NCBI GenBank assembly: GCA_964475245.1
Contig: CAYYVV010000005.1
Coordinates: 19,620 to 83,619 of the forward strand
Length of the DNA stretch: 64,000 nucleotides
Direction of reading: 5' to 3'
Origin: an uncultured Anaerolineaceae bacterium
GTDB taxonomy: Bacteria; Chloroflexota; Limnocylindria; Limnocylindrales; CSP1-4
Numbering within the stretch: the first letter of the stretch is position 1; every line of letters begins with the position of its first letter. Made by a program: the position numbers and the translations under genes. Below are positions 50,834-64,000 of the stretch, piece by piece. The notes under the pieces are model-generated. The model was given only the letters and a program-made list of their open reading frames with translations. It searched no databases and was not told where the DNA came from.

Positions 50834-51615
50834 TGGGCGACGCAGATCAGACGCTGCCGGAGCACGTCCGACGCAATCGCGGCTACTGGGACACGCTGGC
50901 CCACGAATACGTCGAAGCCGGACAGCGTGCCTGGTCCAGCGAGGAAATGTATTGGGGCATCTGGAGCATCCCAGATGCGGATGTCCACCTGCTGCCTGAC
51001 GACGTCAGCGGCATGGACGTCATCGAACTCGGCTGCGGCACGGGCTATGTCTCGGCCTGGCTTGCCCGCCGTGGCGCGCGGCCGGTGGGCATCGACAACT
51101 CGCCCCGCCAGCTCGAGTCCGCAAAGAAGTTCCAGCACGAGTTCGGCCTCGAGTTCCCGCTGATATTCGGCAACGCCGAGACCGTTCCGCTTCCGGACGC
51201 GTCGTTCGACCTTGCCGTTTCCGAGTACGGAGCCGCGCTCTGGGCCGACCCATACGCCTGGATTCCTGAAGCGGCCCGGCTGCTCCGACCCGGCGGTCAG
51301 CTGGCATTCCTGACCAACTCGACGCTGCTCATGCTGTGCGTGCCGGATCTCGAGGCGGAGGGGCATGTGACGACCCAGCTGCGCCGGCCGCAATTCGGGA
51401 TGCATCGCGAGGAGTGGCCCGATTCGGACGGAGTCGAATTCCACTTGGGCCACGGCGACTGGATTCGTCTGTTGCGCGAGAACGGGTTCGAGGTCGAAGA
51501 GCTGATCGAGCTGCGCCCGCCCGCAGACGCCAGGACGCTGTACGACTTCGTCGACACCGATTGGGCGCGCAAGTGGCCCAGCGAGGAAGCCTGGAAGGTG
51601 CGCAAGCGCTCCTGA
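50833..51615 (+). CDS. Class I SAM-dependent methyltransferase
   Basis: Motif I is VIELGCGTGYVSAWLARRG. It is followed by …GIDNSPRQL… and …LRPGGQLAF…. Confidence 0.8.
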   Translation: MGDADQTLPEHVRRNRGYWDTLAHEYVEAGQRAWSSEEMYWGIWSIPDADVHLLPDDVSGMDVIELGCGTGYVSAWLARRGARPVGIDNSPRQLESAKKFQHEFGLEFPLIFGNAETVPLPDASFDLAVSEYGAALWADPYAWIPEAARLLRPGGQLAFLTNSTLLMLCVPDLEAEGHVTTQLRRPQFGMHREEWPDSDGVEFHLGHGDWIRLLRENGFEVEELIELRPPADARTLYDFVDTDWARKWPSEEAWKVRKRS

Positions 51616-51686
51616 GGCGCGCGGTTTCTCCCCCGAAGGCTAGCGGGGTTTGCTTCTCGGGAGAGCATGAGCGCTGGTGGGATCAA

Positions 51687-52130
51687 TCAACCGTTGGAGA
51701 TCACTGTCGGAGCGCCCGTGGCCTGATTTACCTCGATTAGGAAGTGTGACCCGTAGCTAGCACCGCTCGACTCGACGACTTGCGCATCAACCTGAACAAG
51801 CCAGACCGGTTGGCCGGCATTGGGACCGCTAGGGCTCCCGCTACCCTCGTGACTCGTGGACGTGAGGTCTTTGATTGTTTTGTTTGGATCTTGGCAAGCG
51901 CGGTACAGAGCCGCACTAATGTTTTCGGCAACCGCGGCCGACACAGGACCGGGTACAAATGTGAAGGCGATGGGACTCGGGCTATGCCCCAACGGCTGGC
52001 ATGAACTTGCCTCCCCGGCCGATGATGCCGCGCTAGTCGTCGTCGGAGAACCTGGCCCACTTTGTGACGCCGCCGGTGAGCATCCAATCAACGTGATGAC
52101 CGCAATTGCAGCGACAAGCCGGACATTCAT
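51687..52130 (-). CDS. Lipoprotein with a PepSY-like C-terminal domain
   Basis: AGGAAGG lies upstream of the ATG at 52130. The lipobox is LIGCS. The C-terminus reads …GQPVWLVQVDA…SHFLIEVNQATGAPTVISNG. Local G+C is lower. Confidence 0.55.
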   Translation of the reverse strand: MNVRLVAAIAVITLIGCSPAASQSGPGSPTTTSAASSAGEASSCQPLGHSPSPIAFTFVPGPVSAAVAENISAALYRACQDPNKTIKDLTSTSHEGSGSPSGPNAGQPVWLVQVDAQVVESSGASYGSHFLIEVNQATGAPTVISNG

Positions 52131-52293
52131 CTGACAACCTTCCTGGGTTCGCGTGACGGTACGCCTCATAAGCAGTTTCACATGTGCTGCGCGACCGCCG
52201 CATGACATCATGAGCAGGTGTTAGTCCGCACCGATGCGACGCACGAGCGCCATGTATCCATGCGCCAATGAACTTTGGCGGGCGCCTACAGTG

Positions 52294-52515
52294 TCATCCT
52301 CGGCCCACAATCTCAGCTGTACCAGTAATCGCATTAACGTGAATCAAGTAAGGCTCGTCGCCCGCACGCCCCGCGATGTCCCACGTCAATTCCTGCACGC
52401 CTTCGTCGTTGAAAGTGATCTCAAGGTCAATGGAGTGGACGATGAGGGCGACGCTGCCTCCCGGCGAGTCGACGCGATGGTCGGCTACGTCCCTATGTGC
52501 GTATAGGGCCGTTTG
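52294..52515 (-). pseudogene. Start-less ORF remnant paralogous to the C-terminus of the adjacent lipoprotein
   Basis: The minus-strand frame reads …VALIVHSIDLEITFNDEGVQELTWDIAGRAGDEPYLIHVNAITGTAEIVGRG*. No ATG, GTG or TTG lies near its 5' end. Its end mirrors …FLIEVNQATGAPTVISNG* of 51687..52130. Confidence 0.35.
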
Positions 52516-56956: not shown

Positions 56957-58201
56957 ATGACCAATCAACCCAGCAGGGCGGCCTTGCCCGTCCTGCTGGC
57001 CATCACCTTCCTGAGCGCCGTGGGCATGTCCGTCGTGTTCCCGGTGCTCCCCTTCGTCGTCCAGGGCCTGGTGCCCAACACGATGTCGGTCGCGTTGTGG
57101 GTCGGCGTTCTCGAGTCCGTCTATGCCGGCTGTGCTTTGTTCGCCGCGCCCGTGCTCGGATCCCTTTCTGATCGACTCGGCAGGCGGCCCATCCTGATCG
57201 TCAGCCTCATCGGCTCAGCCCTCGGCTGGCTGCTGTTCGGCATCGGCGGCTCGCTGGCCGTGCTGCTGATCGCGCGCATCGTCGACGGCGTCACCGCCGG
57301 CGACATGTCGGTCGCGTTCGCCTACATGGCGGACATCAGCGAACCGAAAGATCGCGCGAAGCGATTTGGCCTGGCCGGTGCAGTCTCCGGCGTCGGCTTC
57401 CTGGTCGGCCCGGCAATCGGTGGCCTGCTCGCCAGCGTCAACGTGGCCGCGCCCGTGTTCCTGGCGGCCGGCGCGAGTGCGCTGACGGCTGTGATCGCAC
57501 TCGTGGCACTGCCGGAAAGCCTCGCCGCGGAAAACCGGACGGCGGCAGAACCGTTCAAGCTCGCCAGCCTCAACCCATTCGGGTCCATGGCGTCGCAGCT
57601 GCGCCGGCCGACCCTGCGCCCGCTCCTGATTGGCTTCGCCCTGCTCAGCGTGACGCTCACCGTGCTGGCCAGCAACTTCCCCGTGTTCGCGCTGGACGTC
57701 GTAGGTTGGGAGCCGATCCAGATCGGCCTGCTGCTCACCGGCGTGGGCCTGGTCGACATCATCGTTCAGGGCGGCCTGCTCGGACTGATGATCAAGACCG
57801 CCGGCGAACGTGGCGTGGTGCTCGGCGGCATGATCGGCGTGGCCGTCTCATCGGCCGCCATCGTGGCCGTGGCCCTGGTAATTCCAAATCCAATCGTGCT
57901 GATCGTCGCCGGCCTGACATTCGCCACGGCCGAGGGAGCGACGACTGCCACTCTCCAGGGCCTGCTGTCGAACGCGGTCGAGGCTGACGAGCAGGGCGCG
58001 CTCGCGGGTGGCGTTTCAGCGATCGGATCGGCCATCCAGTTGGTCGGACCGATCGGCGCCGGACTGCTCTTTGCGCAAGTCGGGCCGGCCGCGCCCTACG
58101 TGGTCAGCGTGATCGCCGCATTGCTCGCGGTTGTCCTTGTCCGCTCACGACTCGGCCTGCGACCAAGCGCCGCCGTGCCCGGATCGCTCGCGACAGCGTG
58201 A
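56957..58201 (+). CDS. MFS transporter (DHA1 / TetA-like efflux pump)
   Basis: It has 12 TM helices and motif A GSLSDRLGRRPILIV. It lies immediately downstream of padR. Confidence 0.85.
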   Translation: MTNQPSRAALPVLLAITFLSAVGMSVVFPVLPFVVQGLVPNTMSVALWVGVLESVYAGCALFAAPVLGSLSDRLGRRPILIVSLIGSALGWLLFGIGGSLAVLLIARIVDGVTAGDMSVAFAYMADISEPKDRAKRFGLAGAVSGVGFLVGPAIGGLLASVNVAAPVFLAAGASALTAVIALVALPESLAAENRTAAEPFKLASLNPFGSMASQLRRPTLRPLLIGFALLSVTLTVLASNFPVFALDVVGWEPIQIGLLLTGVGLVDIIVQGGLLGLMIKTAGERGVVLGGMIGVAVSSAAIVAVALVIPNPIVLIVAGLTFATAEGATTATLQGLLSNAVEADEQGALAGGVSAIGSAIQLVGPIGAGLLFAQVGPAAPYVVSVIAALLAVVLVRSRLGLRPSAAVPGSLATA

Positions 58202-58205
58202 GTGG

Positions 58206-58232
58206 TGATGTCATAGTTGACGAATGACATCA
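58206..58232 (+). promoter_or_regulatory. Perfect 9-bp inverted repeat upstream of the RHH-Fic module (candidate operator, or the MFS terminator)
   Basis: It reads TGATGTCAT-AGTTGACGA-ATGACATCA, with TTGACG in the spacer. CATAGTT is repeated at 58212 and 58240. Confidence 0.4.
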
Positions 58233-58251
58233 TCCATCGCATAGTTCGGGC

Positions 58252-58563
58252 ATGAGCGGCTTTCCCCTCCGGTTCACCAACCCAAACACTCGTGAGCAGC
58301 TTCGCATCGTGGCTGAGCAGTTGGGCACGTCCATGAACCGGCTCGCTGAGGGCATGATCGAGCGAGAACTCGCGGCGATCAGCCTCGCTCTCGAGGACGA
58401 GCTCGAAGACACGCTCCGGCGACTACGCGAGCTTCGCCCCAGTGATATCGAGGCTTCGCTCGTGGCCTGGGCTGAGGCCGAGGGGCAGGCCGACCCGATC
58501 TCGGCTCAAATGGCCGTCCATCACGACGATCCGTACGAGATAGCAGCCGCTTTCGGCCGCTGA
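58252..58563 (+). CDS. Small ribbon-helix-helix-like protein (candidate antitoxin/regulator of the downstream Fic gene)
   Basis: 103 aa: the N-terminal FPLRFTNPNTREQLRIVAEQLGTSMNRLAEGMIEREL fits a beta-strand/helix/helix pattern. The C-terminus is acidic. Its stop overlaps the Fic ATG by 1 nt. Confidence 0.55.
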   Translation: MSGFPLRFTNPNTREQLRIVAEQLGTSMNRLAEGMIERELAAISLALEDELEDTLRRLRELRPSDIEASLVAWAEAEGQADPISAQMAVHHDDPYEIAAAFGR

Positions 58564-59201
58564 TGCCGACGCCGTGGAATGATGACCCACCGGCATCACT
58601 GCCCCTGATCGCTCAGAACGTGGCGGTCGTAGCGACAACCATCCGGGCACAAGCCTCGGCACGGGTCCAGCCCACCACCGCTCTCGCCCAGGACTGGCAC
58701 CGCATGATCTATCAAGGCGTGCCGCTGCCGGTCGCCTACTACGCGGGAGAGATTCGTGACAGTGATCCGGCATATCCCGAGCTGATCGGGTATGACGTAG
58801 TCGTCGCAGGGCTGCCCGGAGTCGACCACACCCAAGTTCCCGGCGAGCTGACGACGTTTGAGTCCGGCTTGCGAGCTTTGTGCGAGACCTTCGATCGGAC
58901 CATTTCCTCGCGCACAGCACCGACTACGGCCTCAGCTCTCGCTGGCGTCATCCGCTTCTCGGCGTTTGCTCACGGCGAATGGGTGCGCATCCATCCATTC
59001 GCCAACGGGAATGGCAGGGTGGCGCGCTGCTGGGCCAACTTCATCGCCTTGCGCTACGGACTGCCTGCCATCGCGACGATCAAGCCACGACCCGCCGACT
59101 TGCTCTATGGCCAGGCCGCACGCGCCTCGATGCTTGGAAACCACGGGCCGACACAAGCGCTGTTCGCAGCGTTCCTTTCGGCGGCCATAGCCGGTCCGTG
59201 A
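58563..59201 (+). CDS. Fic-domain protein (AMPylase-type toxin family)
   Basis: The Fic motif HPFANGNGRVAR lies at nt 58992-59027 (consensus HxFx[D/E]GNGRxxR, here with Asn at the D/E position). Confidence 0.8.
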   Translation: MPTPWNDDPPASLPLIAQNVAVVATTIRAQASARVQPTTALAQDWHRMIYQGVPLPVAYYAGEIRDSDPAYPELIGYDVVVAGLPGVDHTQVPGELTTFESGLRALCETFDRTISSRTAPTTASALAGVIRFSAFAHGEWVRIHPFANGNGRVARCWANFIALRYGLPAIATIKPRPADLLYGQAARASMLGNHGPTQALFAAFLSAAIAGP

Positions 59202-59239
59202 GACGGACTGAGACGTGCCCGATCTGGTGCGGACTGAGA

Positions 59240-59285
59240 GGGCCGACTGGGATTCGAACCCAGGACACGAGGATTAAAAGTCTCG
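59240..59285 (-). other. 3'-half fragment of a tRNA-Lys(UUU) gene (anticodon arm to acceptor end), candidate att site
   Basis: The minus strand reads CGAGACTTTTAATCCTCGTGTCCTGGGTTCGAATCCCAGTCGGCCC. It has a good T-arm and 3' acceptor strand and an anticodon loop CTTTTAA. There is no D-arm or 5' acceptor strand upstream, and no encoded CCA. Confidence 0.6.
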
Positions 59286-59697
59286 CCGAAGAGCGTGCAC
59301 CGGGTCGCTCAGGACCCTACCGCGTCCACCCCACGCGCGCCTCGCGTCCATCGGCTCCACCGCCTCAGACCGCGTTGCACCGCCGTGGCTGTCAACGTGG
59401 CTGTCACGTCCTCGCGCTCGGACACTATGACCACATCGTGTCTCGCCGCTGGTCAAGTACGAGAGCGGTCGGATGCGCGACGCGATCGAGCAGCGCACAA
59501 ACGGTTAACAGTCGCCCGTTTCAGACAACTTCTTGAGCATGAAACGAGCTCACTGCCGCGGCTTACGTAGTCACTCACTCAGTCACCGAGTCGGCCATGG
59601 GTTCGTTGCCCCGCATCGTTTGAATCACTCGCACGCGCGCGCACCCAGCGCTCTCAAGAGCGGCACCTTCCGGCCGCTGTCACGCGATCCGCTGTCG

Positions 59698-60960
59698 ATG
59701 AAGTTACTCGCGCCGGGCCACAATGTGCTCATGCCCGAGCCCGATTTGCTCTTCTCGGCCGGCCGGCTTGCCGATGTTCTCGACAACCAGGCACGACTAG
59801 TCGACGCCGCGGCCCAGGCGATCCCGGCGGAGCACGCGCTAGCGCGAAGCATCGATGAGTTGGCCGCGGAACTAGTCGAGCGCTACGAGATCGAGCCGGT
59901 CGTGCTCGATTGGAGCGGGGTGACTTTGTCCTCTGACGAGGTGAAGATCGACGTGACCTACGACCCGCGGCGCGGATTCTTCGGCGACGAGGGGCGGGTC
60001 CACGTTGCTGGCACGCGCCTGACATTTCACGTTCCCCTCAGCGGCGAATCCAAGCTCCTCAAGCTCCGGCCGTCGCACTACACCAGCAACCCACCTCGCG
60101 GCGCCGTCAGCGCGACGGAGTTGCGCCTGGTCTCGGAGGCGCCCGTGGACAGCCGCGATGGACTGAAGGGTGTCCTTGAGGCCGAGGCCGACAACGTCAG
60201 GCGCTACCTCGACTTCGCGAGCGCGGACCTGACGACGTGGAGCGCCACGCTGCCAAAGATGGCCCACGACGGAGTCGAGCATCGAAGGCAGCAGGTCATC
60301 GCCGACCGCGAGTTCGTGGCTTCGATCGGCGTTCCGCTCCGCAGACGTGAGGACGCGCGACCGACCTACGCAGTGGCGCCGATTCGCCGTCAAGTCACCA
60401 AGCCGCCAACGAGCGGACACCGGCCGAGCGCGCCCGAGCCCTTCCTGCCGAACGAGGAATACGAACGCATCCTCGAGATCTGCCGTGGCATGGCCACCGT
60501 GCTCGAGCGTAGCCCGAGGGCATTCGCCCGCGCCGGCGAGCAAGCGATCCGGGACCACTTCCTGGTGCAGCTCAACGGTCAGTACCAGGGCGAAGCCATG
60601 GGCGAGACATTCAACAACGAGGGCAAGACCGACATCCTCGTGCGCGAGAAGGGCAGCAACCTCTTCATCGGCGAGTGCAAGTTCTGGGATGGGCCGCAGA
60701 ACCTCTCGGACACTGTTGACCAGATCCTCCGCTACCTGACCTGGCGCGACACGAAGAGCGCGATCTTCCTGTTCAACTGCGGGCGCGAGCTGACGAAGGT
60801 GCTGGCCGCGATCAGTCCGACTATCGCCGAACACCCCAGCTTCGTGCGTGAGATCGACTATGGCACTGAGACCGACCGACGGTTTGTGCTCCGACACCGC
60901 GACGATCCAGAGCGCGAGATGACGCTCACGGTGCTCACCTTCGAGGTGCCCACCGTCTAG
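59698..60960 (+). CDS. Hypothetical protein with an unknown N-terminal domain (~280 aa) and a C-terminal PD-(D/E)xK nuclease-like domain
   Basis: The C-terminus reads …FNNEGKTDILVREKGSNLFIGECKFWDGPQNLSDTVDQILRYLTWRDTKSAIFLFN… (D-x13-E-x-K then Q-x3-Y; nt 60631-60681). An alternative ATG lies at 59731. Codon usage is atypical (CTA, TTG, TTA). Confidence 0.6.
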   Translation: MKLLAPGHNVLMPEPDLLFSAGRLADVLDNQARLVDAAAQAIPAEHALARSIDELAAELVERYEIEPVVLDWSGVTLSSDEVKIDVTYDPRRGFFGDEGRVHVAGTRLTFHVPLSGESKLLKLRPSHYTSNPPRGAVSATELRLVSEAPVDSRDGLKGVLEAEADNVRRYLDFASADLTTWSATLPKMAHDGVEHRRQQVIADREFVASIGVPLRRREDARPTYAVAPIRRQVTKPPTSGHRPSAPEPFLPNEEYERILEICRGMATVLERSPRAFARAGEQAIRDHFLVQLNGQYQGEAMGETFNNEGKTDILVREKGSNLFIGECKFWDGPQNLSDTVDQILRYLTWRDTKSAIFLFNCGRELTKVLAAISPTIAEHPSFVREIDYGTETDRRFVLRHRDDPEREMTLTVLTFEVPTV

Positions 60961-61140
60961 TGCCAAACTCGCTGCGGTGTGCCGCGCAACGTGGCAGCAT
61001 ATGGGCGCCCAAGTTGCTAGGTCAGCACGTGCCAGACTTCGCTGCGGACCGGACCGGTTGTTGAACCCGAGGTCCGTGGCGAAGGCGATAACTGGCTCTG
61101 GGCGATTTCGCTTAGCAGCCGCGCTGGTTCAGAGCGGCCG

Positions 61141-63606
61141 TTGAGCAATCTTGTACCGCGCTTGGTAACGAGTGGACCGTGCCACAGCTCTGTTTCGCCG
61201 GGAGGCTTGGAATTGGGTAAGTCAATCGGGCAGGTCAGCAAGCTGTCGTCCGAAGCCCTGAAGGTTGCTCAGACCGACACGGTCATTCGTTCCAGATCGA
61301 GCGGATCCTCCGTCGGCCGCGGTCAATTGGTGGTGCTCTCAACTCCCGCGGCCTTCGCCCGCCTGCAGGCCCTGCACCGACGTGCAATAGCGCAATCCAC
61401 GGGCATTCGTGCCGTGGACAAGCTCGATCCAGTCAGCGCACGAGGCTGGTACGAGCGGGCGCTGGCCGCGGCGCTGGGCCATCTCGTTGTCGTTGACGAG
61501 TCCACACGTGCACGGATAGGTAATTCGCTCGCTCGCTACTGCGCGCAGGTCGGCAACTACGACGGCCTCGAGAGTCTGTTGTTAAGCATCGCGATCGATG
61601 CGCTTGCGACGGCGCCCACGAGTCATGAGCCGATTGTCGGCCGCCAGCGCTCCAGCCAGGCGACGCCGATCCGTTCCGGCAAACCGAGACTTACAAGTGC
61701 ATCCAGGGTCGCAACGATGCAGCAAGTATTGAGCAGCCAAAGGTTTCCATCCACGCTGGGTGGCGGCTTGTCCGCTTCGGTGATCGCGCTATTTGAAGAA
61801 GCCGAGCTGTACACGGTTTCACAGACCGCCGGCGAATCTCTAGCCGCGCAACTCGGCGTTGCTATACCCGGACAGTCGGCGGTTCAGAATATTTCGGGAC
61901 AGTTGGCGGTTCTGGCCGGTGCAGATGCCGACGGCCAATCCACGTGTCAAAAGGTAGTTGCCGGTGCGGGCGCAGTCGTGACGCTCGCCGTTCTTCTCGG
62001 AAAGACTGCCGTTGACACGGCGGGAGCGGCCGAGACTGGGAACACCAGCGGCGTGGAGCAAGACGAAGAGATCGCGGAGAATCTGCAGCCAGCTACCAAG
62101 GAACTGCTCGGCCCCGCCATCACCCTGGTGAGCAGCGTCGTCTGCGGTCTGGTTTCCGCGGACAGTCCAACGAACACGACGACAACCACGAGCACGCTCC
62201 CAGGCGGCACAACGGTTACCGTCGTTGCAACTACCTCTGGCGGAAGGACGACGGTGGTGACAACATCCGTCGCGCCGGATGGGAGTACGGCAGTCGAACA
62301 AGTGAACCCCGACGGCTCGATCTCATTCACTCAGACCGGATCCGACGGGACGGTCACGAAGGTCGTCGCAGGCGCAGACGGAAGTTACGGCGTGACCGTG
62401 ACGACGGCTGATGGGACGACTACGGGCGAATGGACAGATGCCTCGGGCAACTCAGGCACCTGGACCCAGCAAGTGGGCGGTAGTTACCAGGCGACACAGA
62501 CTGGAACGGATGGCACGGCCGTGTACACGACTTTCGACGCATCGACACGCACGACTACGACGACGCAGTTGACGCCGGACGGGGCGACAACAACGTGGGT
62601 AGATAACGCCGATGGCACTTCGATCACGACTCAGGTCAATGCCGACGGCACGCAGACACAGTGGACGACGGACGCGAGTGGGACGGTCGCCACGATCACG
62701 GCCGCGGATGGCTCCACCACGAGCTTCACATTCGACAAGAACGGCAATCAAACCTCCGGGCCCAACACTTCCAGCGCCGATCAAACCTCGCCGTCGCCGT
62801 CAGCACCCGAGACACCTGCAGCCGATCCAGGTGCGGCGACGGGCAATGATTCGGGCAACGGCACTTCCACGACTTCCGGTGGCACGGACCTCAGCAGCAA
62901 CGACCCAGGTAGTGACGCGAGCGCACAGCAGTGCATTGACCAAAGCGGGTCAACGGAGAACGACGGCGGCTTCATCGCGGGCGATTGGGACGATGGCTAC
63001 GGCGATGACTCCGGGCCAATTCGCATCTCCTTCTCAAATGGCGGTGACCCGGCCGACACAGGTAATGCATCCAGAGATACTGGTGGGCTAAATCAAGGAA
63101 CGATCGGCTTTGGCGAAGGCATCGGGGACATCGACAAGTCGGCGGGCGATGCGAAGCTGAACGCGTCATTGCTGACGAGCGGCGTTAGCGACCCCTCCAC
63201 GGAGGATGATTCCGGTAAGTCCAGTGGCGGCGGACTGCGCGGACCTGCGCCAGCAGCGTTCAGTGCGGCTGTTCCAGGCATTCCGGCCAGCGCCCTCCTA
63301 GCCGGGCAGTTAGCTGGGACCAACGGCAGCTACAAAATCTCCGATACACCCACGATCAGCGCAGACGGCTCTATCAAGACCGGATACACAGCTTCGTATG
63401 CGGCCATGAAAGGCATCGGAGATACGGCCAGCGTCGCCAACATAGTCAGCGCGGCTAAGGCCACAACCGTCGTCTCGGTCCTGCAGGCAAACGCGGCTCT
63501 CGCGCAGTCGAAGGTCGGCGCAGCCATCTCCGGCAAGAACCTTGGCGGTCTCGCCTCGCTCACCGTCACCGGGGTAGCCATAGGCGTCAATCTCCGAGGC
63601 GGCTGA
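61141..63606 (+). CDS. Large hypothetical protein: helical N-domain, two hydrophobic segments, Thr/Gly/Asp-rich degenerate YD-like repeats, acidic Gly/Asp region, Ala/Ser-rich C-terminus (start uncertain)
   Basis: The 821-aa ORF has DG(S/T) recurring every ~10-12 aa (…WTDASGNSGTWTQ…WVDNADGTSITTQ…FTFDKNGNQTS…). There is no signal peptide at the TTG start. G+C is lower than in the core genes. Confidence 0.5.
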   Translation: MSNLVPRLVTSGPCHSSVSPGGLELGKSIGQVSKLSSEALKVAQTDTVIRSRSSGSSVGRGQLVVLSTPAAFARLQALHRRAIAQSTGIRAVDKLDPVSARGWYERALAAALGHLVVVDESTRARIGNSLARYCAQVGNYDGLESLLLSIAIDALATAPTSHEPIVGRQRSSQATPIRSGKPRLTSASRVATMQQVLSSQRFPSTLGGGLSASVIALFEEAELYTVSQTAGESLAAQLGVAIPGQSAVQNISGQLAVLAGADADGQSTCQKVVAGAGAVVTLAVLLGKTAVDTAGAAETGNTSGVEQDEEIAENLQPATKELLGPAITLVSSVVCGLVSADSPTNTTTTTSTLPGGTTVTVVATTSGGRTTVVTTSVAPDGSTAVEQVNPDGSISFTQTGSDGTVTKVVAGADGSYGVTVTTADGTTTGEWTDASGNSGTWTQQVGGSYQATQTGTDGTAVYTTFDASTRTTTTTQLTPDGATTTWVDNADGTSITTQVNADGTQTQWTTDASGTVATITAADGSTTSFTFDKNGNQTSGPNTSSADQTSPSPSAPETPAADPGAATGNDSGNGTSTTSGGTDLSSNDPGSDASAQQCIDQSGSTENDGGFIAGDWDDGYGDDSGPIRISFSNGGDPADTGNASRDTGGLNQGTIGFGEGIGDIDKSAGDAKLNASLLTSGVSDPSTEDDSGKSSGGGLRGPAPAAFSAAVPGIPASALLAGQLAGTNGSYKISDTPTISADGSIKTGYTASYAAMKGIGDTASVANIVSAAKATTVVSVLQANAALAQSKVGAAISGKNLGGLASLTVTGVAIGVNLRGG

Positions 63607-64000
63607 CTCAAGCCAAATCCACGACCACCAAGTCAGGCCGAAGGTCTCTGTCTCGAGCCCGCAGATCTTGGCGACGACCGCCAAGGTCCACGTCAGCTGG
63701 CCGGCGGCAACGGACGCGTCCGGCATCGACAGTTACCAGCTCCAGAAGAAGAAGGGTACTGGTGCCTGGGCGACCGTCACCCTGTCGTCGCCGACCGCGA
63801 CTTTGGCCGACGTCACGGTCACGACCGGCACCAAGTACCAGTTCCGACTGCGCGCCACGGACACCTCGGCCAAGCACAACACCAGCGCCTGGGTTACGAC
63901 TACCGCCTCCAAGCTGGCGCTCGTCCAGGAGAATGCGACGACGTTCAGGTATTCGGGCACCTGGAAGAGCACTGCGCTCGCGGGCAGCTCGGGTGGCTAC
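63584..64000 (+). CDS. Fibronectin type III domain ORF, 3'-truncated by the window edge, with no canonical start near its 5' end
   Basis: The frame opens after the TAG at 63581 and runs to base 64000 without a stop: …PKVSVSSPQILATTAKVHVSWPAATDASGIDSYQLQKKKGTGAWATVTLSSPTATLADVTVTTGTKYQFRLRATDTSAKHNTSAWV…FRYSGTWKSTALAGSSGGY. The only candidate start is the TTG at 63668, which lies inside the domain. The frame is +1 relative to 61141..63606. Confidence 0.5.

Follow-up and report, generated by a model that had tools for sequence, protein, structure and literature searches.

What is the role of a gene near the right-hand end of a 64,000-nucleotide stretch of DNA from an uncultured Anaerolineaceae bacterium (GenBank assembly GCA_964475245.1, contig CAYYVV010000005.1, positions 19,620 to 83,619; this whole stretch is hereafter "the window")? 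An earlier note, made from the letters of the window and a list of its open reading frames (ORFs), had read the product as a stand-alone protein of 420 amino acids (aa) in which an N-terminal domain is fused to a PD-(D/E)xK nuclease core, and had put it forward as a candidate single-gene defence effector. We asked whether the protein belongs to a known family, whether its C-terminal part can be taken for a nuclease, and how well a role in defence accounts for its architecture and for the genomic surroundings of its homologues. Residues are numbered throughout as in that note, with residue 1 at position 59698.

The window protein is a member of the PDC-S54 family

The sole PADLOC match of the window protein at E ≤ 1 was the PADLOC-DB family PDC-S54 (HMM PDLC05036), with E = 1.6e-128 and 427.7 bits, in an alignment that set residues 12–418 of the protein on profile positions 1–407 of 410. 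Judged from this alignment, the protein is a full-length PDC-S54 member with nothing to set it apart from the family, and the earlier view that its sequence matches no named system in any obvious way has to be given up. The idea that the family is a candidate for defence is likewise already catalogued under this name and is not new. The PDC set comprises 145 "phage defence candidates" found by guilt-by-embedding, that is, taken from genes that lie within loci of BREX, DISARM or type I restriction-modification (R-M); known defence, mobilome and housekeeping families were removed before the PDCs were named, and the PDCs were then added to PADLOC (Payne et al., bioRxiv 10.1101/2024.01.29.577857). 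The catalogue entry for PDC-S54 comes without a domain description, a mechanism or an experiment. Of eight other PADLOC candidates that a later study tested, four gave E. coli B protection from one or more phages (PMC12881386).

Other libraries had little to say about the protein. Searches of Pfam, NCBIfam and PDB sequences with the window protein and with a 41-sequence profile returned nothing usable (in Pfam the window protein had no match at E ≤ 1 or at E ≤ 10), and PHROGs returned only a family of unknown function (E = 7e-4).

The family itself proved to be large. A word-indexed search in which 8000 candidates were scored gave 929 homologues at E ≤ 1e-3, which ranged from 372 to 541 aa and were mostly of ~410 aa. 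An exhaustive profile search gave 6755 clusters (50% identity), with E at or below 1e-30 for 2556, and nearly all of the best 150 of these 6755 clusters were full-length. A scan of one genome per species gave at least 599 pattern matches, among which at least 565 were confirmed as relatives. Given the 929 homologues and 6755 clusters, the ORF in the window is not a chance ORF, and the two-domain architecture is, as the alignments have it, constant across thousands of homologues. Family members were found in Chloroflexota, Proteobacteria, Cyanobacteria, Firmicutes, Planctomycetota, the candidate phyla radiation (CPR) and Archaea (Bathyarchaeia, Promethearchaeota and Methanolobus), and their distribution is patchy across bacteria and archaea.

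The C-terminal domain resembles PD-(D/E)xK nucleases

The three motifs that the earlier note had quoted are all present exactly as it gave them, with GKTDILV at residues 309–315, IGECKFW at 324–330 and QILRYLTW at 342–349. We assessed conservation in 120 diverse representatives of the family, mutually at most ~50% identical, and observed that the D...ExK...QxxxY residues are near-invariant in this set (Table 1). E270, E281, R285, E303, W349 and D351 are further invariant residues.

When the C-terminal domain was modelled alone with AlphaFold2 (AF2), the model reached a pLDDT of 90.2 and a pTM of 0.88, and it displayed the alpha-beta-beta-beta-alpha-beta topology of PD-(D/E)xK nucleases with the three strands antiparallel. 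In the numbering of the domain, the predicted elements are a helix at 37–51, strands at 56–62, 65–73 and 76–85, a second helix at 89–102 and a last strand at 109–117. D312 corresponds to domain residue 68 and falls at the start of strand 2, E326 and K328 correspond to 82 and 84 and fall on strand 3, and Q342 and Y346 lie on a helix that spans residues 333–346 of the protein.

Sequence comparisons pointed in the same direction. In Pfam scans of each of the 120 members, the recurrent matches were to PD-(D/E)xK families only, all of them weak: HSDR_N in 13 members (best E = 3.2e-4), pPIWI_RE_REase in 9, DUF234 in 3 and PDDEXK_9 in 2. Comparison by hhalign of the C-domain profile with 11 HsdR N-terminal domains, taken from the loci that we had fetched, gave E = 0.0033 and brought the D, the ExK and the Q..Y into register. 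In Foldseek searches of the C-domain model against the PDB, the highest probabilities belonged to NucS (2vld_A, 0.72), McrC (6hz4_M, 0.69) and NucC (7zgv_A, 0.66), all at E ≥ 0.01, while in BFVD the best partial match, over 108 columns and with a probability of 0.89, was to an Mrr-domain protein of viral origin. The Foldseek list also included chains of protein-tyrosine-phosphatases, mostly SHP2; such an identity for the C-domain was rejected, as these chains superposed with a root-mean-square deviation (rmsd) of ~10.5–13 Å and had probabilities below those of the nuclease matches.

Five independent lines (residues, topology, Pfam, profile-profile comparison and Foldseek), none of them significant alone, agree on PD-(D/E)xK. 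On sequence and model together, we consider it very probable that the C-domain belongs to this superfamily, within the RecB/HsdR-like subgroup that carries QxxxY, and the signature recognised in the earlier note stands with this assignment. With the HsdR nuclease domain (HSDR_N) and the RecB family, the C-domain shares the D...ExK and QxxxY in register and the same core topology, but its similarity to HsdR stays below threshold (the HSDR_N matches given above at best; hhalign probability 9.6%), and the invariant E270, E281 and R285, a GETFN loop and the WRD at 349–351 are specific to the family. HsdR moreover carries a superfamily 2 (SF2) motor (ResIII/SWI2_SNF2), whereas the window protein, at 409–420 aa, has neither helicase motifs nor Pfam matches. 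We regard the C-domain as a distinct, previously undescribed PD-(D/E)xK subfamily.

Domain architecture and the N-terminal domain

A full-length AF2 model, built from an alignment of 41 sequences, had a mean pLDDT of 85.9 and a pTM of 0.50, the latter value reflecting the undefined placement of the two domains relative to each other. The earlier note had divided the protein into some 280 and 150 residues. The division into two domains was confirmed, with somewhat different boundaries: the model gives an N-terminal domain at residues 12–215, a linker at about 216–245 and a C-terminal domain of 175 aa at 246–420. The N-domain is predicted to consist of three helices (24–40, 44–49 and 52–63), a four-stranded sheet (76–85, 102–115, 134–137 and 141–149) and a long C-terminal helix. 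This helix is amphipathic, with a hydrophobic periodicity that peaks at 3.6 residues and with hydrophobic positions at 164, 167, 171, 174, 178, 181 and 185, in an alternating spacing of 3 and 4; we suggest that it could be a coiled coil, an oligomerisation element or another helix-packing interface. The central part of the linker that follows is predicted to be disordered, and its family consensus reads LGxPLRRRxDAPxTY.

Among the 120 representatives, mean pairwise identity was 25% in the N-domain, where 13 of the 204 positions were conserved at 80% or above, and 52% in the C-domain, where this was the case for 62 of 175. The conserved positions of the N-domain are mostly Gly, Pro, Leu or Phe. 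No match to the N-domain was found in Pfam, NCBIfam, PHROG or PDB sequences, and a Foldseek search with the full-length model gave no match at E < 1e-3 in the PDB and BFVD. The N-domain, in which the earlier note could recognise no motif, is likewise unrecognised by the libraries searched here. Its role would be that of a sensor, an oligomerisation element or both.

The top Foldseek matches of the full-length model (the central domain of acetyl-CoA carboxylase, TUT7, SHP2 and DNA polymerases beta and lambda) had an rmsd above 10 Å and were set aside as noise. Two candidate identities for the N-domain were tried and rejected. A distant 344-aa relative, described below, had a weak Specificity_I match; however, the N-domain as half of an HsdS target-recognition domain plus a helix gave E = 0.17 in hhalign against the HsdS sequences of the loci, and the N-terminus of the 344-aa relative gave E = 0.53 against the same sequences. 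Nor did the N-domain compare well as a degenerate second nuclease, since its comparison by hhalign with the C-domain and with HsdR N-termini produced only short helix matches, whose probability was 1–3.5%.

The probable start codon

The ORF ends on the + strand with a TAG stop and offers three in-frame ATGs, at 59539 (473 aa), 59698 (420 aa) and 59731 (409 aa). Gene callers on identical metagenome contigs had chosen either 59539 or 59698, and the start at 59539 is without counterpart among the homologues. The closest homologues (65–68% identity) begin with MSLPDLLF, which pairs with M12-PEPDLLF of the window protein. Because of this shared start, the family length of 407–410 aa and a PADLOC profile that begins at residue 12, the ATG at 59731 most probably represents the true start, to judge by the alignments, and the start at 59698 would be at most 11 codons too early. 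What the earlier note had described as a 420-aa gene is therefore a real coding gene with the support of homologues, although a product of 409 aa is likelier. An antisense ORF that overlaps it (59872–60966) is, on the same comparison, evidently the usual artefact of high-GC DNA, and the homologues back the + frame. A scan for promoters and terminators found no promoter-like site upstream of the nuclease gene and no terminator-like site; its single promoter-like site lies at 58217–58245, ahead of an upstream gene for a 103-aa protein.

Genomic context of the homologues

For a census of neighbours, ORFs were called in the 80 genome loci that were kept, and all neighbour proteins were clustered and identified by Pfam (Table 1). 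There was no conserved neighbour in these 80 loci. The commonest, HsdR, occurred in 16 of them and at variable distance, and no cluster exceeded that number. As no neighbour is conserved, the gene stands alone, just as the earlier note had supposed.

In 10 of the 80 loci (L003, L021, L029, L032, L034, L048, L061, L065, L076 and L077), the family gene was co-directional with an hsd operon and lay within it, typically in the order hsdM-hsdS-X-hsdR. The true HsdR neighbours are proteins of ~1000 aa with SF2 translocase domains. When we identified the 112 immediate neighbours (loci L001–L080) by PADLOC and Pfam, these included HsdS (6), HsdR (3), NYN (4), mad5 (4), GmrSD_N (2), Cas1 (1) and integrases (2). 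The neighbour survey thus independently reproduces the embedding signal by which PDC-S54 had been defined. The mad5 matches, to a component of the MADS system, reached E = 8.5e-61 at best.

Mobile elements carry, as cargo, those actinobacterial relatives that come closest to the window protein. One adjoins a tyrosine integrase (L101), and another lies within an element that bears a type IV secretion system (T4SS) together with Phd/YefM-like genes (L102). A 58%-identical homologue sits beside Replic_Relax at the edge of a region (within L103 8001–17230) resembling an integrative and conjugative element (ICE), with a TraC/TraG-like ATPase and an SLT/M23 hydrolase. In L089–L091 the homologue forms part of a small integrative element that also contains an integrase, Replic_Relax and a Gp49/HTH pair, and in L087 it stands beside AAA_21, methyltransferases and a resolvase. 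As a separate observation, genes for Prok-JAB, ThiF, AAA_16 and SIR2_2 come after the homologue in L103 and have the look of a cluster of additional defence-type genes.

Table 1. Features of the nuclease gene and of its product, with their positions in the window, and protein families encoded near family members
Feature	Position	Strand	Basis, conservation or count
Nuclease gene, 420 aa plus stop (start as in the earlier note)	59698..60960	+	ORF list; start codons inspected
N-terminal domain, residues 12–215	59731..60342	+	AF2; block-mean pLDDT mostly >90
Long alpha-helix, residues 150–210 (~60 residues)	60145..60327	+	DSSP on the AF2 model
Arg/Pro-rich linker, residues 216–245 (RREDARPTYAVAPIRRQVTKPP...)	60343..60432	+	pLDDT <50 at 220–244
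C-terminal domain, residues 246–420	60433..60957	+	Predicted PD-(D/E)xK (RecB/HsdR-like) fold; domain-only AF2
D312, predicted catalytic Asp, start of second core strand (GKTD-ILV)	60631..60633	+	120/120
E326-C327-K328, (D/E)xK motif, third core strand (IGECKFW)	60673..60681	+	E 119/120, C 119/120, K 116/120
Q342-I-L-R-Y346, QxxxY, helix after the ExK strand	60721..60735	+	Q 120/120, Y 119/120
HsdR			16/80 loci
HsdS			10/80 loci
HsdM			10/80 loci
ABC ATPases			8/80 loci
Tyrosine integrases			5/80 loci
Serine recombinases			4/80 loci
N6_N4 methyltransferases			4/80 loci
NYN-LOTUS proteins			3/80 loci

The nuclease domain recurs on plasmids with an unrelated N-terminus

A tblastn search against plasmids gave 22 records with a match, 12 of which covered at least 80% of the query; several of the others matched only from residues ~243–261 to 417–420. 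Two phage records carry homologues as well. Two proteins of 344 aa, WP_097506613.1 from the E. coli IncHI2 plasmid pEC_CBJ3C and WP_263056742.1 from a Pantoea plasmid, aligned with positions ~245–408 of the PDC-S54 profile only (E = 9e-38 and 8.5e-39). Like the window C-domain they retain GKTD, ECK-W-G and NQLLGY, whereas their N-terminal 180 aa are unrelated to those of the window protein (hhalign E = 0.23). Because the same C-domain is joined to an unrelated N-terminus in these plasmid proteins, the nuclease domain is a portable module, and this portability fits an effector role. One C-domain-only relative gave a weak match to Mrr_cat (E = 0.031).

On the E. coli plasmid NZ_ON960341.1 (L099, 5455–9880), the 344-aa gene lies directly upstream of a gene for a 1020-aa SF2 helicase (ResIII/Helicase_C) that has weak PbeA and HamB matches, and a retron St85 reverse transcriptase is found nearby; on the Pantoea plasmid NZ_CP134740.1, the corresponding region is L100 5467–6501. 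The arrangement in E. coli suggests a different system, of two genes, in contrast to the single-gene PDC-S54, and the 344-aa protein and the SF2 helicase may together form an undescribed nuclease-helicase system.

A candidate self-restrained defence nuclease

The reading that we favour is that the gene encodes a single-gene, self-restrained defence nuclease directed against phages or other mobile elements, and we hold the case for it to be about evenly balanced. We infer catalysis, substrate, sensing and oligomerisation from the architecture, conservation and context described above. The RecB/HsdR-like C-domain would be a Mg2+-dependent DNA nuclease and the effector of the system, which the N-domain and the linker would hold inactive in the uninfected cell; such restraint would have to reside within the molecule, since there is no partner gene for immunity or an antitoxin. 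The fast-evolving N-domain would recognise a cue derived from the invader, which could be a protein or else a nucleic acid of an unusual kind, and the 60-residue amphipathic helix could bring two or more nuclease domains together for double-strand DNA cleavage. The cutting of DNA would then stop replication of the invader, with or without death of the cell.

The proposal of the earlier note, a single-gene defence effector, survives as far as the stand-alone two-domain architecture and the fit with a defence and mobile-element context are concerned, but the likeness in logic to Shedu-type systems that it pointed out does not extend to membership. Like Shedu (SduA, DUF4263), the window protein is a single protein with a variable N-domain and a C-terminal domain, predicted to be of the PD-(D/E)xK type, that would need restraint. 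Unlike Shedu, it has no match to DUF4263 (PF14082) or SduA in Pfam or PADLOC; DUF4263 was also not among the 25 Pfam families most often matched by the 120 members, and there was no Shedu structure among the Foldseek matches listed. The nearest likeness is within PDC-S54, whose other members share the family and the single-gene format and are in some cases embedded in type I R-M operons.

A number of observations weigh against a defence nuclease. As to the nuclease itself, K328 is missing in 4 of the 120 representatives, the hhalign alignment with HsdR has a probability of just 9.6% and extends over 37 columns, and Foldseek gave no match to a solved or viral structure at E < 1e-3, with TM-scores of at most 0.36; in the same list the phosphatase chains outnumber the nuclease matches. 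As to defence, the N-domain has no known sensor fold, which makes sensing pure inference, and about 80% of the sampled loci have no R-M gene within 10 kb. The neighbourhoods of homologues, whose examination the earlier note had proposed, contain many ordinary metabolic genes besides type I R-M operons, other defence genes and mobile elements. In the window, the one defence-like feature close to the gene is a Fic pair, which matches PDC-S04 in part, and the window copy of the nuclease gene is not embedded in a defence system. PDC-S54 is absent from the eight PADLOC candidates tested in PMC12881386, and its name was found in no paper text searched, nor in the supplements of bioRxiv 10.1101/2024.01.29.577857.

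Alternative explanations

We also considered that the protein could be a type IV (modification-dependent) restriction endonuclease, whose N-domain would recognise modification of a base or of the backbone in incoming DNA and whose C-domain would cut that DNA; we judge this unlikely. No immunity gene would be needed in this case, because host DNA would be without the modification. The layout is that of the Mrr and MspJI enzymes, in which a non-catalytic N-terminal binding part is joined to a C-terminal PD-(D/E)xK domain in the product of a stand-alone gene, and the family gene is often found beside type I R-M genes, just as mrr adjoins hsd in E. coli K-12. The weak structural match to a viral Mrr-domain protein, the Mrr_cat match of the C-domain-only relative and the GmrSD-type enzymes among the neighbours are consistent with such an enzyme as well. 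However, Mrr_cat, SRA, EVE, YTH and winged-helix domains were found neither in the window protein nor among the 25 commonest Pfam families of the 120 members, no modified-DNA reader was among the Foldseek matches listed, and the QxxxY and the HsdR-like matches place the C-domain in another subgroup, nearer the RecB/HsdR type than Mrr_cat. The few conserved positions of the N-domain, among which polar and aromatic residues are scarce, also do not look like a conserved base-binding pocket. Together, the missing reader of modified bases and the poorly conserved N-domain argue mildly against a type IV enzyme.

A nuclease that serves its mobile element in DNA processing, recombination, exclusion or the stabilisation of a plasmid or ICE, and that has no antiviral role, appears rather improbable to us. 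It would account for the tyrosine integrases, Replic_Relax, T4SS components and toxin-antitoxin (TA) pairs beside the closest relatives and for the 22 plasmid and 2 phage records with homologues, and nucleases of the RecB family often take part in recombination and repair. Yet the gene takes no constant place in these elements and has no constant partner there, and it occurs also inside chromosomal hsd operons without mobility genes. Both its sporadic presence across bacteria and archaea and the variability of its N-domain are typical of conflict genes; the PADLOC curators, furthermore, had removed mobilome-associated families before the PDCs were named.

The last alternative, a guard modelled on PrrC, an ABC-ATPase fused to an RNA nuclease, would have a latent nuclease dock on the Hsd complex, to be set free once a phage anti-restriction protein has put Hsd out of action. 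It is suggested by the 10 of 80 loci with a co-directional family gene within an hsd operon, where its usual place is between hsdS and hsdR (prrC sits at the corresponding place in the prr locus), and by the HsdR nuclease domain being the Pfam family most often, if weakly, matched. We nevertheless consider it very unlikely, given that hsd genes are missing within 10 kb in about four-fifths of the loci sampled, that the window locus itself has none (its neighbours are Fic and a repeat protein) and that the closest relatives are carried by integrative or conjugative elements that contain no R-M genes. An obligate partnership with type I R-M is excluded, because most loci and the closest relatives are without R-M genes. 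PrrC, cited as the classic embedded system, was found almost solely embedded in type I R-M (bioRxiv 10.1101/2024.01.29.577857). The hsd-embedded members of PDC-S54 resemble it in lying co-directionally inside type I R-M operons, whereas in the window protein an ATPase domain is missing and the predicted fold is of the DNA-nuclease type, and most members of its family are not embedded. A combined reading, in which the N-domain would be an undescribed fold acting as the trigger sensor and the hsd-embedded members would be PrrC-like guards of the type I R-M complex that release an HsdR-like nuclease upon phage anti-restriction, is in our view quite improbable; were it true, PDC-S54 would serve bacteria and archaea alike as a widespread "back-up restriction" module whose sensing domain is new.

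To return to the self-restrained defence nuclease, a sensor domain joined to PD-(D/E)xK in a single-gene defence system belongs to a well-known class, and a suitable annotation of the gene is "PDC-S54 family PD-(D/E)xK nuclease, candidate defence gene", not a new discovery. What the present analysis adds to the catalogue entry is the dissection into domains, the assignment to the RecB/HsdR-like subgroup with QxxxY, the portability of the module and a corrected start codon; it also confirms independently that family members are embedded in type I R-M operons and carried by mobile elements. If protection against phages were shown, PDC-S54 would represent a large single-gene immune family across bacteria and archaea with an effector of ~410 aa. 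The size of the family and its unrecognised N-domain make it worth an experiment, for which D312, E326, K328, Q342 and Y346, the candidate oligomerisation helix and the natural examples of hsd-embedded and re-fused proteins offer handles.

The locus in the window

The gene had been placed by the earlier note just after a Fic module and as the first gene inside a putative island. The former is correct: a Fic gene at 58563–59201 (+; 212 aa, Pfam Fic E = 1.2e-9) lies upstream, and its product has a partial match to PADLOC PDC-S04 (E = 1.7e-14, profile positions 100–202 of 205) and weaker SoFic matches. The gene before it, at 58252–58563 (+; 103 aa), has weak matches to Arc in Pfam (E = 0.13) and to an Arc-like repressor in PHROG (E = 0.014), and its stop overlaps the start of Fic; the two form a toxin-antitoxin-like pair. 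A metagenome variant (L096, 593–1231) has an extra segment of ~640 bp with a 146-aa ORF, inserted at window position 58192/58196 between a gene for a major facilitator superfamily (MFS) transporter and the Arc-like/Fic pair. Strains thus differ at the junction that immediately precedes the Fic module.

Between Fic and the nuclease gene lies a tRNA-like 3′ fragment (59226–59289, −). Its T arm (CTGGGTTCGAATCCCAG) is perfect, its UUU anticodon arm imperfect and its acceptor strand 7 nt long; neither ARAGORN nor Rfam called the fragment, and no second copy exists in the window. An element integrated to its right may have left it behind as a decayed att remnant. From ~58 kb to the end of the window the GC content is 0.62–0.65, compared with ~0.70 at 45–51 kb. 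The fragment and the lower GC content are in keeping with the putative island, but a bounded integrated island that starts at the fragment was not found: the window and the 3.06 kb beyond its end (contig L095) contained no integrase, intact tRNA or second copy of the repeat. It is plausible that the "island" is old horizontally acquired DNA without delimited ends.

Downstream of the nuclease gene, a gene at 61141/61213–63606 (+) encodes a repetitive protein of 797–821 aa that is rich in Thr, Gly and Ser and has sub-threshold matches to YD/RHS repeats (Pfam RHS_repeat E = 0.0036; TIGR01643 E = 0.023). This gene accompanies the nuclease gene in all identical metagenome contigs but not in the loci of homologues elsewhere. 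It is followed by a gene for a 209-aa protein that runs past the end of the window at 64000, as seen in L095, and then by an SBP_bac_5 transporter gene.

Farther upstream, at 51000–52500, we observed a local trough in GC content, at 0.60–0.64 compared with ~0.70 on both sides. It surrounds an ORF of 173/174 aa (−) with a signal- or lipoprotein-like N-terminus, and may be a small acquired segment.

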